NCBI GenBank assembly: GCA_021399345.1
Contig: JAAFKI010000053.1
Coordinates: forward strand, 1 to 35,277
Source of the DNA: Candidatus Heimdallarchaeota archaeon
Lineage (GTDB): Archaea; Asgardarchaeota; Heimdallarchaeia; Heimdallarchaeales; Heimdallarchaeaceae
Direction: 5' to 3'
DNA: 35,277 bases
The notes under the pieces are model-generated. The model did not search any database, was not told where the DNA came from, and was given only the letters and a program-made list of their open reading frames with translations. Positions 31,321 through 35,036 of this stretch are shown here, piece after piece. Every line of letters begins with the position of its first letter. The stretch's first letter is position 1. The translations under genes and the position numbers were made by a program.

Positions 31321-31554
31321 TTAATTGACACAAATCATTGTCATTGAATTCTTTACTCCTTCTAGAATTATATTGTTGTTCAATACTTGATTTTTCAATT
31401 CGTCCATTGTTCCGAATTCAATCTTTACAATTAAATCATAGATACCATACACTGCGTAAACTTCTGTAACTTCTACAATGTGTTTGAGACCCTCTTGAAC
31501 TTTTTCTAACATGCCCGATTGGACGTTTAGAAGGATATAAGCTGCTTGTGTCAT
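31321..31554 (-). CDS. Stand-alone Lrp/AsnC ligand-binding (RAM) domain protein
   Basis: AYILLNV...VYGIYDLIVKIE...GVKNSMTMI. Confidence 0.9.
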   Translation of the reverse strand: MTQAAYILLNVQSGMLEKVQEGLKHIVEVTEVYAVYGIYDLIVKIEFGTMDELKNQVLNNNIILEGVKNSMTMICVN

Positions 31555-31675: not shown

Positions 31676-32956
31676 TTATTCTTTTTGAATCTTTAATCTT
31701 GCTTTACAAGCTGGGCAAGTTCCATTTCCAACAACCCATTGATATAGATGGTTTTTATGAAAAGCTATATCACAAGAAGGACATCGTATGATAGTCTCTT
31801 TCTTTGAAATAGTTTGTAAACATATAGAACAAGTAACAGTGATGGCTTCTTTTGTAACTAAATTATAGTTAATGTCTTTTTTCTGGAAATCAACATCATA
31901 AACGAGCTTAGGTGAATATTCAACTTTATTTTTATTCAAACTATGATTTGTTACTCTATTCTTTTTTCTTCTTTGGAAGAGTTTGAATGAAATGAAAACA
32001 CCAGCAAGGTACAATACAGAGAATAATACGATTATTGGATTAGCTGTAAAAAAGGGTGGAGTGTTAGTTTCGATAGAATCATCGATGATTTTCCATTGAA
32101 AAGCTAAGTCAGAATACTTTTTATCAAATGGAATATCTGCAAGATTTTTTGCTCCTGTATTAATAAATAACCTTGCGATATTTTCGGTTTGAACATGATC
32201 ATAAAATAAACTAATTAAAATGTCGTTTTCAGCATTATAATCACTAAAGTTAAAGATTATTTCATACCAATCCCCTTCAGATATCCCCCCATCTATCCCT
32301 ATATTTAACTCTGATACGTCACTTATTGCGAAATTATCAGATTCTGATTTGATAGATGTCTGATTTTCATCAAGAAGATTAAGAGTGTAGTTAGTTGTTT
32401 CAAGGTATCTACTGCCTAAGATTGTAACTAGTTTGTCAATACTCTGGTAATATTCTGCAAATCTCTCTACTCCAAAGAAAAATTGAGGTTCTAAATTAAG
32501 ATTCATGGAATAGGTCCAGATAGGATAAACATCTGATACTGTAAAATTAAATAAACATTCTTCAACATAAAGTGAACTTACTCTAACTCTAATAATTTCA
32601 TAAATTTCCAATCCAGTTGTAAAATAATGTATTCCTGTATCACCATGATTGATTAACCAACTATCGTAAATGGTTTCACTCTGATCTAAGACTAATTGTA
32701 TCATAAGACCATTGTAAGGCCCTTGTATAACACTTCCCCATTCCTGAACAGAAATACTAAATTCGAATACTGCTCCTTCGATAAGAATGAAATACTCACT
32801 GTTGTTATAGGAAGAACTAACTTTAAGACTATAACTTTTATCTACAGCTTTTGTTGTTGTGTCATCAGTGATAACCAATCCATTTGTATGATTTAGTAAT
32901 GTCATGGTTAATGAAAGAGATATAAAAAAAAGAAAGAGAGTTTTTGATTTACTCAT
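31676..32956 (-). CDS. Single-pass membrane protein with cytoplasmic RING finger (putative E3 ligase)
   Basis: Signal peptide, ~280-aa beta-rich ectodomain, TM followed by QRRKKNR, and C-x2-C-x12-C-x2-C-x4-H-x2-H-x3-W-x6-C-P-x-C. Confidence 0.82.
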   Translation of the reverse strand: MSKSKTLFLFFISLSLTMTLLNHTNGLVITDDTTTKAVDKSYSLKVSSSYNNSEYFILIEGAVFEFSISVQEWGSVIQGPYNGLMIQLVLDQSETIYDSWLINHGDTGIHYFTTGLEIYEIIRVRVSSLYVEECLFNFTVSDVYPIWTYSMNLNLEPQFFFGVERFAEYYQSIDKLVTILGSRYLETTNYTLNLLDENQTSIKSESDNFAISDVSELNIGIDGGISEGDWYEIIFNFSDYNAENDILISLFYDHVQTENIARLFINTGAKNLADIPFDKKYSDLAFQWKIIDDSIETNTPPFFTANPIIVLFSVLYLAGVFISFKLFQRRKKNRVTNHSLNKNKVEYSPKLVYDVDFQKKDINYNLVTKEAITVTCSICLQTISKKETIIRCPSCDIAFHKNHLYQWVVGNGTCPACKARLKIQKE

Positions 32957-32960
32957 TTGA

Positions 32961-35036
32961 TCACCGCTTCTTACGTTTTATGAATCCAAGCAAAGCTGTT
33001 AATCCAAGTATGGTTACAAAGATTGGCCAAGACGAAGATTGATAGTAATGATCATGTGTGTCGTACTCATTCTCATTAACAAAGCCTATGTCAATCTCCC
33101 CAACATGATAATCTGCAACAACCAACATCAAAAATTCATCTTCTGTAAGATATACTTCACTACTTTGTTTGTATAGGTAGTCCATACTACTTGCATTGAA
33201 CACATAGATTCCTGTTTGAACCACATATGAATCAGCATAAAATTTGCATTGTTCTGTAGATTCTAAGCTATTGTCTATCTCAAAAAGATAAGCGTCATCA
33301 GCTCCAATATCCACACTTATCTTGTCTCCCAATTCAAGTCTCCGAGGTATTGCATTTGCTATAGTCACTTCTATAATTTCTGAAGAGACCAAAGAGATTT
33401 TTATGGTGTGACTAGCTGGGATTGCAATTACATCATAGTTGGATCCGAGTTTATCTAGAACAATTGAAGAATAAGCTACATCTACTGCTAAGATGTCATA
33501 GGTATCATAGGTATCACCAATAATCATTCCATAGGAATCATTGAATGGATGTCCTGTTAAGCGATAAATAACTCTCTGATTAGGATATAAAACTATCTCT
33601 TTTTTCTTGTTAAAAGGTATTAATGAATACTCATAGATGTTAGAGAAATCAATATTTTGTATCTCGCTAGAAATTCTATTTCCGAGCCAATCCTCAGTAT
33701 AGATTTGATAATACAAAAACTCTGTTTGTTCAGTAAATAGTAAAGATAGACAGTATGAGTCGTTGAATAGTGATGTGGCATTAGCAATAGTCCAAAAAAT
33801 AGCTCTGTCAAATTTATAGTAAATCTCAACAAATGAAACTCCTGTAACATCTTTTATTTCACTCATGATATTTACATACTTCTCATCAGTTAGAAAATCT
33901 TCACCAAAGTAGACCCAAGTATCAATTTCCGGAGGCAAATCGTCCAATAAAACAACAAATGTTTTTTCGATGCTTCTTCTTTCATCTTGATCATTCTGGT
34001 GAGATAATTGAACGGTTATTTTGAAATCCAATTCAACTGCATAGAGTACTATTAATTCTCCAATGATATCTGGAATGTCTGTTGTCTGAGGATATTCAAA
34101 ACCAATTTCAACATAAGTACCTCCTGTTATTTCAGCTCCAGGACGTAACTGGTCAAAAACCTGATTACTCGAACCAGTAGCTGCAATAGTACAAAGTATA
34201 AACCCTTCAACTGCATATTGTTGATAGATATCGTTTAGTTGAGAAGTTGATCTAATGACAGTTCCACCATTATCTACTTCATCAGTAATTAACACTACCA
34301 ATTTAACTGCATCAGTACGCCAATCAAGATTCATCTTAGTAGCATATAATGCGTCACCCCAAGGTTCAGTACCACCATTAGCTGCAGTTTGAGCTAACAC
34401 ACTAACAATATCTTCAACATCGAAAGTGAGGGGAAAGATCAAGCTATCTTCTAGATAGGGATTATAATCAGGATTGCCCCCAAAGAGAACCAAACCTACT
34501 CGGAGATCAGGAACTTCTAAATCGATTTCATCAATAACTCTGATTAATTCGCTAGTTAAAGTTTCGATTTCATCTCCCATAGAACCAGACTGATCAAGAA
34601 CGATGGCCAAATCTAGAGCAGAAGAAACTTCTGCAGTGGATTCTGTAAGGATTGAGTGTTCGTTGGTAATCCATGATTCTCCTATTTCAAGATAATCTTT
34701 AGTAGAATCAGACGGATTTTGTATTGTTCCAAAGTCGTTTGTTTGGGCATAAAATTCCAGAAGATCAAGCTCTTGGTCCGAATTATTTGTTACATTAAAA
34801 CAAACACTAAAAGAATCTCCAGGTAGAGTACTTGGAATGTTATCCGAACGGTAGGACTGCAAGTCTGTTATCATCTCAATTGAGACATTATCTAAAGGAC
34901 TTGTTGTTTCAAGACTTAACTGATTTATAACTGGTGAAAAACTCTCAGTTTTACTAATTACATGCATGATAGGTGTGAATAAACCTACCAGCACAATTGT
35001 GCAAAAAATTATTCCGTTTATTTTCATTTGTATCAA
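32961..35036 (-). CDS. Cell-surface vWA-domain protein with Ig-like domains and C-terminal membrane anchor
   Basis: Signal peptide; MIDAS DQSGS, GGTEP, WRTDAVKLVVLITDE; C-terminal TM with KRKKR. ATG at 35027 is an alternative start. Confidence 0.88.
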   Translation of the reverse strand: MIQMKINGIIFCTIVLVGLFTPIMHVISKTESFSPVINQLSLETTSPLDNVSIEMITDLQSYRSDNIPSTLPGDSFSVCFNVTNNSDQELDLLEFYAQTNDFGTIQNPSDSTKDYLEIGESWITNEHSILTESTAEVSSALDLAIVLDQSGSMGDEIETLTSELIRVIDEIDLEVPDLRVGLVLFGGNPDYNPYLEDSLIFPLTFDVEDIVSVLAQTAANGGTEPWGDALYATKMNLDWRTDAVKLVVLITDEVDNGGTVIRSTSQLNDIYQQYAVEGFILCTIAATGSSNQVFDQLRPGAEITGGTYVEIGFEYPQTTDIPDIIGELIVLYAVELDFKITVQLSHQNDQDERRSIEKTFVVLLDDLPPEIDTWVYFGEDFLTDEKYVNIMSEIKDVTGVSFVEIYYKFDRAIFWTIANATSLFNDSYCLSLLFTEQTEFLYYQIYTEDWLGNRISSEIQNIDFSNIYEYSLIPFNKKKEIVLYPNQRVIYRLTGHPFNDSYGMIIGDTYDTYDILAVDVAYSSIVLDKLGSNYDVIAIPASHTIKISLVSSEIIEVTIANAIPRRLELGDKISVDIGADDAYLFEIDNSLESTEQCKFYADSYVVQTGIYVFNASSMDYLYKQSSEVYLTEDEFLMLVVADYHVGEIDIGFVNENEYDTHDHYYQSSSWPIFVTILGLTALLGFIKRKKR

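Follow-up and report, generated by a model that had tools for sequence, protein, structure and literature searches.

RING-type ubiquitin ligases (E3s) are catalogued among the eukaryotic signature proteins of Asgard archaea, and an archaeal cascade of E1, E2 and RING protein has been reconstituted (PMC5654768; bioRxiv 10.1101/2023.07.25.550441). Such activity has been shown for srfp of Caldiarchaeum subterraneum (PMC5654768) and for a Helarchaeial RING (bioRxiv 10.1101/2023.07.25.550441). Work on Asgard archaea has also described ubiquitin, E1, E2, soluble RING E3s and a ubiquitin-binding ESCRT-I, and it has been proposed that ubiquitylated substrates recruit ESCRT (PMC9192718). Both srfp and the RING E3 of the Asgard ubiquitin/ESCRT operon are small, soluble and encoded inside ubiquitin operons. 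The eukaryotic PA-TM-RING ligases (RNF13, GRAIL/RNF128, plant RMR1) and RNF43/ZNRF3 have in common the order of signal peptide, ectodomain, one transmembrane helix, basic stop-transfer and cytoplasmic RING. Here we describe a RING gene on the reverse strand of a 35,277-nucleotide stretch of DNA (the window) from an Asgard archaeon of the family Heimdallarchaeaceae. Its product is, as we judge it, reasonably probably a receptor-shaped, membrane-anchored RING-type ubiquitin ligase with an ectodomain coupled to a vWA protein.

A sequence-only reading of the window had proposed a receptor-like E3 in a prokaryote. The proposal agrees with the RING fold, with the set of E2-contact residues and with the ubiquitin, E1-like and E2 genes of the genome; an E3 in a prokaryote is not new, because RING E3s have been catalogued in Asgard archaea and the archaeal E1/E2/RING cascade has been reconstituted. 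With a RING ligase in Asgard already known, what is distinctive at this locus is the large ectodomain, the conserved two-gene unit with a vWA gene and the restriction to one family. No paper combining Asgard, RING and vWA was found in the literature search, and none on an archaeal RING that is vWA-coupled or bears an ectodomain was found in the incomplete literature that was searched.

The protein ends in TCSICLQTISKKETIIRCPSCDIAFHKNHLYQWVVGNGTCPACKARLKIQKE, which holds the finger pattern C376-x2-C379-x12-C392-x2-C395-x4-H400-x2-H403-x3-W407-x6-C414-P-x-C417-K418. The open reading frame (ORF) had been called correctly, as had the motif CSIC-x12-CPSC-x4-H-x2-H-LYQW-x6-CPAC(K) at 31706-31831: C376 begins at 31831, C417 ends at 31706 and K418 lies one codon further, at 31703-31705. 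The profile zf-RING_2 (PF13639) matches residues 375-418 over profile positions 2-44 of 44, with 32.1 bits against a gathering cut-off of 27.3 (E = 1.4e-7). A phmmer search of PDB sequences returned 23 matches, all of them RING-type E3 ligases and mostly RING-H2. Arkadia is the best (7.9e-7), and the others include EL5, Arabidopsis RMR1, RNF24, RNF38, RNF165/Ark2C, RLIM, listerin, ZNRF1, ZNRF3 and RNF126. Among the remaining Pfam profiles, PHD, C1, Prok-RING_1, zf-rbx1 and several zinc ribbons scored only far under their cut-offs, and RINGv was not among the matches of the protein at E up to 1.

Alignment to Arkadia and EL5 fixes the register of the ligands. C395 takes the place of ligand 3, Ile397 that of the usual His4, H400 that of His5 and H403 that of the usual Cys6, and W407 keeps the RING position, four residues past ligand 6. 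With C395 on ligand 3 and Ile397 on His4, the fourth ligand of zinc site 2 must therefore come from C392, three residues upstream. The ligands predicted from sequence thus have the eight-ligand cross-brace spacing C-x2-C-x12-C-x2-C-x4-H-x2-H-x10-C-x2-C, in which the canonical C3H2C3 identities are replaced by a variant C4H2C2. Ligand 6 is His rather than Cys, which sets the finger apart from RING-CH/MARCH (C4HC3). In the literature the term 'C4H2C2' was found only for the LSD2/KDM1B zinc finger and for no RING class.

Conservation was followed in an alignment of 25 orthologues. Their ectodomains share only about 30% identity; all eight ligands, W407 and P415 are invariant. I378 is nearly so, being I or V, and position 418 is K, with R in two orthologues and N in one; K418 aligns with the Arg of Arkadia. 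The E2-binding surface is thus kept, including the Trp four residues past ligand 6, the C-P-x-C proline and the basic residue after C8, to which the sequence-only reading had drawn attention. Also invariant are S377, Q381, R391, P393, S394, D396, A398, K401, L404, Y405 and L421. In a wider alignment of 29 RINGs, 13 of them paralogues, C1, C2, the ligand-3 Cys, His5, Trp, C7, Pro and C8 do not vary. Averaged over all pairs, identity reaches 0.73 in the RING, 0.43 and 0.36 in the two ectodomains and 0.31 across stalk and transmembrane helix.

Five close orthologues give a dN/dS of 0.12-0.22 for the ectodomain and of 0-0.14 for the RING, with 0.02-0.04 for the neighbouring Orc1. The whole gene is therefore under purifying selection, its outer part being less constrained, and these five show no sign of pervasive positive selection. 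For the vWA gene dN/dS is 0.22 (pair L009-L010).

We modelled the last 63 residues alone with AlphaFold (AF2), from an alignment that joins 16 RINGs of orthologues with 13 of paralogues, and obtained a pLDDT of 87.7. RING or U-box domains fill nearly all of the 50 best Foldseek rows. RNF165 (5d0i_B), for instance, matches with a TM-score by target of 0.79 and a root-mean-square deviation of 1.6 Å over 52 columns, and further matches include several RING-E2~ubiquitin complexes, HRD1, gp78 and the PA-TM-RING ligase RNF13 (5zbu_D). An independent all-against-representatives search with VIA gave rows that are nearly all RING or U-box domains, among them the Prp19 U-box (Z 7.2), PCGF5, RNF4, APIP6, HRD1 and Pex12. 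The exceptions in the lists, TFIIH p44 and cellulose synthase, are related RING-like fingers. A Z near 7 is modest and expected for 50 residues; the evidence is the homogeneity of the fold lists, and a non-cross-brace finger is therefore not supported at the level of models. In the full-length model (mean pLDDT 72) the RING part forms a beta-beta-alpha unit (389-411) and a final strand.

Taken over profile, fold and contact residues, the finger is a member of the RING superfamily with a variant ligand set, and it almost certainly has a true RING fold. The zf-RING_2 score over its cut-off, the PDB matches to RING E3s and the ligands invariant in the orthologues bear out the earlier claim of a genuine RING as against a chance motif.

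The same protein is predicted to carry signal peptide, ectodomain, single transmembrane helix and cytoplasmic RING in this order, based on AF2 helices and on counts of K and R. The N-terminus has MSKSK and then a hydrophobic stretch of 16 residues. A single strong hydrophobic segment lies at about 305-327; the 15 residues on either side hold no K/R before it and six after it (QRRKKNR). By the positive-inside rule the RING is therefore predicted to be cytoplasmic, with the N-terminal helix either cleaved or retained, a prediction that also draws on hydropathy and the AF2 helices and that matches the inner side proposed from the sequence. In the juxtamembrane linker Y347, P349, F357 and Y364 are invariant and T368 nearly so, amid an otherwise variable stretch of low model confidence. 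Going by their conservation, these residues may form a docking or regulatory motif. The tail contains six Cys, all predicted ligands, and the ectodomain one. N-glycosylation sequons are not enriched in the ectodomain, with 5 observed against 3.1 expected (5 were reached in 381 of 2000 shuffles).

Table 1. Features of the RING gene and its neighbours, with positions in the window
Feature	Position	Strand	Description and basis
Whole RING gene	31676..32956	(-)	426 aa, stop 31676-31678; single-pass membrane protein with C-terminal RING; open ORF
N-terminal signal peptide or signal anchor, aa 1-26	32879..32956	(-)	MSKSK plus hydrophobic helix; AF2 helix 3-23, hydropathy peak 6-21
Ectodomain 1, aa 36-165, jelly-roll beta-sandwich	32462..32851	(-)	AF2 pLDDT 80-90
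Ectodomain 2, aa 173-270, second beta-sandwich	32147..32440	(-)	AF2 strands 173-266
Transmembrane helix and basic stop-transfer, aa 305-330 (...FKLFQRRKK)	31967..32044	(-)	AF2 helix 307-332, Kyte-Doolittle (KD) peak 2.8
Cytoplasmic juxtamembrane linker, aa 340-372	31841..31939	(-)	Alignment columns; low pLDDT, disordered in model
RING finger, aa 376-418	31703..31831	(-)	Predicted ligands C376, C379 / C392, C395 / H400, H403 / C414, C417; plus I378, W407, P415, K418
Upstream partner gene, 691 aa	32961..35036	(-)	Signal helix, extracellular vWA, long beta-rich region, C-terminal transmembrane helix, tail KRKKR
MIDAS motif D148-x-S-x-S152 of vWA protein	34581-34595	(-)	Intact
Shine-Dalgarno-like heptamer GGTGATC	32959..32965	(-)	Overlaps vWA stop codon, 2 nt before RING ATG
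AsnC-type gene, 77-aa stand-alone Lrp/AsnC ligand-binding (RAM) domain	31321-31554	(-)	121 nt downstream of RING gene

AF2 predicts strands only from residue 39 to 266, in two sandwiches with pLDDT 80-90. With the full-length model, VIA finds PirA (Z 10.3), the C-terminal jelly-roll of Tk-SP (Z 10.0) and the GOLD domains of p24 proteins (Z 9.3-10.0), and other fold matches by Foldseek or VIA are collagenase PPC and collagen-binding domains. Foldseek matches to the tandem of sandwiches include the SIDT1/2 ectodomain, BcsB and the tandem collagen-binding domains of ColG, at E of about 1e-4 and low TM-score. As modelled, these are matches to a generic jelly-roll, and we read no function from them. 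A profile of the ectodomain alone, run against 1.84 billion representative proteins, gave 18 matches, all in the same family, and no distant relatives among these representatives. The ectodomain is an orphan jelly-roll pair. The protein Atlas, entered with the orthologue of Heimdallarchaeota AB_125, gave no usable feature matches, and its structure rows, which come from a poor Atlas model, have TM-scores below 0.5.

These results bear on the likeness to RNF13, RNF43 and ZNRF3 that the sequence-only reading had seen. The order of ectodomain, transmembrane helix and RING stands, and the RING sequences are similar as well (AtRMR1 7bvw at 5.9e-5 and ZNRF3 9ozx at 5.2e-4 by phmmer). The archaeal finger and the eukaryotic receptor-type RING ligases also have the E2-contact residues in common, with the RING-E2~ubiquitin structure of RNF13 among the fold matches. 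The likeness does not extend to the ectodomain. The PA fold is alpha/beta; the model here is all-beta, with two jelly-rolls whose fold matches are of PPC, collagen-binding, GOLD and SIDT type, and no PA-domain family occurs among the Pfam matches at E up to 1. Unlike the PA-TM-RING and RNF43/ZNRF3 proteins, the archaeal protein has C4H2C2 in place of C3H2C3, carries its RING at the extreme C-terminus, is encoded by a gene paired with a vWA gene and belongs to an archaeon. Lacking a PA or PA-like ectodomain, it falls outside the receptor-type ligases as a family and is an analogue of them in layout.

Among archaeal RINGs, srfp has the triad I30/W58/R69, whose residues were mutated as probes when the Caldiarchaeum cascade was reconstituted (PMC5654768); they correspond to I378/W407/K418 here, and both RINGs are of the RING-H2 clade. 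srfp departs from the canonical ligands at positions 3/4, where an extra Cys ('C3B') has been proposed as ligand (PMC5654768). Unlike srfp and the Asgard operon RINGs, the present protein has a large ectodomain, a transmembrane helix, His at ligand 6 and a gene outside the ubiquitin operons. The cluster of ubiquitin, E1 and E2 genes, with or without a deubiquitinase (DUB), that is typical of srfp is absent around it; its neighbours are the vWA gene, the gene for an AsnC-type domain and Orc1/Cdc6.

Bacterial Prok-RINGs are said to be binuclear treble-clef relatives of RINGs, some of them membrane-associated and linked to ubiquitin-like operons, as Burroughs, Iyer and Aravind reportedly described in 2011. 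The profile Prok-RING_1 (PF14446) aligns only to the first half of the finger (residues 374-402) and stays under its cut-off (E 0.0028, 18.0 bits against 29.1), and the eukaryote-type zf-RING_2 scores better.

The RING gene is directly preceded, in the same orientation, by the gene for a 691-aa protein with a vWA domain (Pfam VWA, E = 3.7e-10; window 34161-34613). Its MIDAS residues D148, S150, S152, T204 and D252 are invariant in five full-length vWA orthologues.

A profile of these five orthologues, run against PDB sequences, matched integrin beta-6 beta-I domains best, and weakly (E 7e-4 to 6e-3). Two invariant motifs, DxSGSMxDE and EPWGDA, resemble the MIDAS/ADMIDAS region of integrin beta.

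The vWA stop codon and the RING ATG are separated by 4 nt. At the junction stands a Shine-Dalgarno-like heptamer (Table 1), which we take to be a good match to the archaeal anti-Shine-Dalgarno consensus in its general form, the 3' end of the genome's own 16S not having been found; a comparable motif is present at only 4 of the 34 starts in the window. Of 24 related loci in which the upstream flank is readable, 23 have the vWA gene as the direct upstream neighbour of the RING gene, across genera of one family. Every readable orthologous locus keeps the order of Orc1 (forward), then the AsnC-domain, RING and vWA genes (all reverse), with the exception that the locus of one genome, G007, is without the vWA gene. 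In five longer stretches the genes beyond vWA are on the opposite strand, and the unit therefore consists of two genes, or of three with the small AsnC-type gene. Judged from gene arrangement, the RING chain may well be functionally coupled to the vWA protein, a reading that we hold tentatively.

Several observations weigh against a vWA-coupled ligase. The closed sister-genus genome G007 keeps the RING orthologue (L054, G007:C1:1202393-1203583) beside AsnC and Orc1, and a vWA orthologue was found neither beside this gene nor elsewhere in that genome with the vWA protein of the window as query; because of this locus the pairing is usual and not obligatory. The synteny of Orc1 and AsnC is conserved equally, so that the adjacency could partly reflect shared descent in one family. 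The RING gene lies outside the ubiquitin operons, the ubiquitin, E1 and E2 genes being on contigs C136, C123, C110 and C53. The linchpin is Lys (Asn in one orthologue), where Arg is more usual, and the AF2 models contain no zinc. Finally, RNA is represented by a single metatranscriptome contig of 242 nt at 34081-34319, within the vWA gene; that metatranscriptome has none on the RING gene, and a second RNA run gave no match in the window. The contig is too thin to demonstrate transcription of the RING gene or its co-transcription with the vWA gene.

In G007, the RING orthologue has two unrelated ORFs upstream of it, of 224 and 140 aa.

The G007 locus and the equal synteny of Orc1 and AsnC would fit a real membrane RING E3 that works independently of the vWA protein, the adjacency being inherited gene order, the ectodomain sensing something else and the targets being other membrane proteins. 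It would also fit that no other RING gene of the genome adjoins a vWA gene and that hhalign finds no domain shared by the ectodomain of the RING chain and the vWA protein (probability 0.7%). Such independence leaves unexplained the 4-nt spacing, the heptamer inside the end of the vWA gene and the fact that both genes encode surface proteins. Moreover, both surface proteins drop to roughly 30-60% identity to the query in distant orthologues, against 72-95% for the adjacent Orc1. We consider an independent ligase unlikely.

The tail could also be a RING-like zinc module that is not catalytic, an interaction or dimerisation domain that ties a surface adhesin complex to cytoplasmic partners and neither binds an E2 nor transfers ubiquitin. 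Eukaryotes have inactive RINGs, BARD1 and MDMX among them, and the non-canonical C4H2C2, the Lys or Asn in place of Arg at the linchpin and the position outside ubiquitin operons would suit such a module. However, the residues that inactive RINGs tend to lose are conserved here, with W and P in 29 of 29 RINGs and the Ile invariant or Val in orthologues, and the low dN/dS of the RING also argues against it. In addition, the published archaeal RING with a similar shift at ligands 3/4, srfp, is active (PMC5654768). A non-catalytic module is in our estimate quite improbable and, as far as sequence and model can tell, the finger is likely to work as an E3.

A PHD-, FYVE- or other treble-clef finger, acting as a PHD-like C4HC3 reader or lipid-binding module, is very improbable: the first five ligands (C-x2-C...C-x2-C-x4-H) are PHD-like and there are weak Pfam matches to PHD (E 0.13, 12.8 bits against a cut-off of 24) and C1_2 (E 0.025), but both remain far under their cut-offs while zf-RING_2 passes, the Trp is at the RING position and the top-50 rows of Foldseek and of VIA contain no PHD or FYVE domain, absence from a list being no proof.

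For the vWA-coupled ligase that we favour, the following mechanism can be proposed. The signal helix would place about 280 residues, with the two jelly-roll sandwiches, outside the cell, and one transmembrane helix with its QRRKKNR would lead to a cytoplasmic tail of about 95 residues ending in the cross-brace RING. Zinc site 1 is predicted to be formed by C376/C379/H400/H403 and site 2 by C392/C395/C414/C417. The RING would bind a ubiquitin-charged, Cys-bearing E2, one of the two in the genome, through I378, W407, P415 and the linchpin K418. Ubiquitin would then be moved to lysines near the membrane, in the RING chain's own tail, in the lysine-rich tail of the vWA protein, which has K687, K689 and K690, or in neighbouring membrane proteins, and the marked proteins would enter the Asgard UEV-Vps23/ESCRT or proteasome pathways. 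The ectodomain would most likely pair with the extracellular MIDAS-vWA protein, which the same transcript would encode. Whatever the vWA head binds outside might control how the RING clusters, and with this its activity or access; alternatively, the RING chain might set the level of the vWA protein at the surface. A more specific version, which we regard as doubtful, is a two-chain surface receptor, in which the metal-dependent, integrin-beta-like head of the vWA protein binds a ligand or another cell, switches on ubiquitin ligation by the RING-tailed chain and feeds UEV-Vps23/ESCRT.

The genome contains the other components that such a pathway would use. Four UQ_con genes are present, two with a catalytic Cys (C136 with HPN...C, C110 with HAN...C) and two UEV-like with coiled-coil tails, and a matching split of UQ_con genes has been described for Heimdallarchaeota AB_125 by Hatano et al. 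(PMC9192718). There are two ubiquitin-like genes, one of which ends in ...KGGL, and three ThiF/E1-like genes. The two Cys-bearing E2s are encoded at C136:29488-30018 and C110:14842-15345, an E1 at C136:33997-34893 and the ubiquitin with the GG-L ending at C123:71528-71767. A ubiquitin operon at C136:29488-34893 encodes a catalytic E2, a six-transmembrane RING-like protein with Glu at ligand 6, a ubiquitin-like protein ending in STAG and an E1-like protein. A second cluster, on C123, has UEV-Vps23, an E1-like gene and a ubiquitin ending in GGL.

The RING census of the genome counts 18 RING ORFs. Ligand 6 is His in 13 of these, Glu in 4 and Cys in 1, and the pair at ligands 3/4 is C-x2-C in 8, the canonical C-x-H in 5 and CC in 5. 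The His at ligand 6 in the present protein, which the sequence-only reading had marked as unusual, does depart from the eukaryotic classes, but within this genome it is the usual residue. The same CPxC-x4-H-x2-H signature is found in RINGs of other genera of the class. The other membrane RINGs of the genome and class have the signature C-P-x-C-x4-H-x2-H-[LIV]-x2-W...C-P-x-C in common with the present protein, and most have transmembrane helices. Most of them differ from it in being only N-terminally anchored or multi-pass and in lacking a clear large extracytoplasmic domain, and none in the genome stands beside a vWA gene; one of them, at C192:25314-26237, has a weak second hydrophobic segment.

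RINGs also end larger proteins of this genome. A 1026-aa protein (G000:C184:61301-64378) joins a Dna2-like PD-(D/E)XK nuclease and an SF1 helicase to a terminal RING (zf-RING_2, E 1.1e-4), and ORFs of 970-1030 aa with a terminal RING recur in other genomes of the class. A 690-aa protein (G000:C169:162920-164989) combines a match to the PCI domain (E 1.9e-7) with a RING at its C-terminus that scores at the Pfam cut-off. Three membrane-anchored RING paralogues with the finger variant P-C-C-x4-H-x2-H lie in tandem at G000:C192:25314-28515.

The host is represented by a metagenome-assembled genome (MAG) of 3.27 Mb in 199 contigs, 88.6% complete. In a search of 5.8 billion proteins we found 29 full-length or partial relatives of the RING protein, all from the Heimdall group or other Asgard archaea. 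NCBI names the sources of the closest homologues as Candidatus Heimdallarchaeota or Heimdallarchaeaceae MAGs; for some homologues the label is already 'E3 ubiquitin protein ligase' or 'RING finger domain-containing protein', for the AB_125 orthologue it is 'hypothetical protein'. In 83 genomes of the same class, searched in six frames, full-length orthologues are confined to one GTDB family, in the genus of the window and three other genera, and RING-only matches occur in 82 of the 83, several per genome. Near-identical DNA occurs in metagenome contigs from marine sediment, cold seep and seawater, in 11 studies.

A eukaryotic contaminant was considered as the source of the gene and is rejected, because an archaeal Orc1/Cdc6, recognised by Pfam, adjoins it and the gene order is conserved in >20 Heimdall-group genomes.

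Two orthologues look interrupted, L019 (G026:C169) and L031 (G005:C2); one has an in-frame TAA and the other is split into ORFs of 178 and 310 aa. These could be pseudogenes or assembly errors.

The AsnC-type gene downstream of the RING gene encodes a RAM domain that is 85-100% identical across the genus.

In the close strain L009 (G025:C122) the DNA is 96-98% identical over most of Orc1, AsnC and the RING gene, with 88-98% for the RING gene. Identity falls to 77-86% in the middle of the vWA gene (compared over window 33000-34450), and a metagenome contig, X1, has clustered differences at 33223-33525. These comparisons suggest that part of the vWA gene is hypervariable or has recombined.

For the annotation of Asgard genomes, the census indicates that His at ligand 6 and an interchangeable fourth ligand of site 2 (CxxC, CxH or CC) are normal in this lineage, which helps to annotate RINGs that canonical patterns miss. 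The layout of ectodomain, transmembrane helix and RING, widespread in eukaryotes, occurs in the Heimdall group too, here joined to an unrelated ectodomain, which suggests either that the layout was assembled independently or that an old design had its outer part replaced. A receptor-shaped membrane RING with a surface partner is a concrete candidate for the ligase that marks membrane proteins in the ubiquitin-ESCRT picture of Asgard archaea. If true, a two-chain vWA-RING receptor would mean that the closest archaeal relatives of eukaryotes couple receptors to ubiquitin signalling and use ubiquitin to down-regulate surface proteins, in a pre-eukaryotic form.

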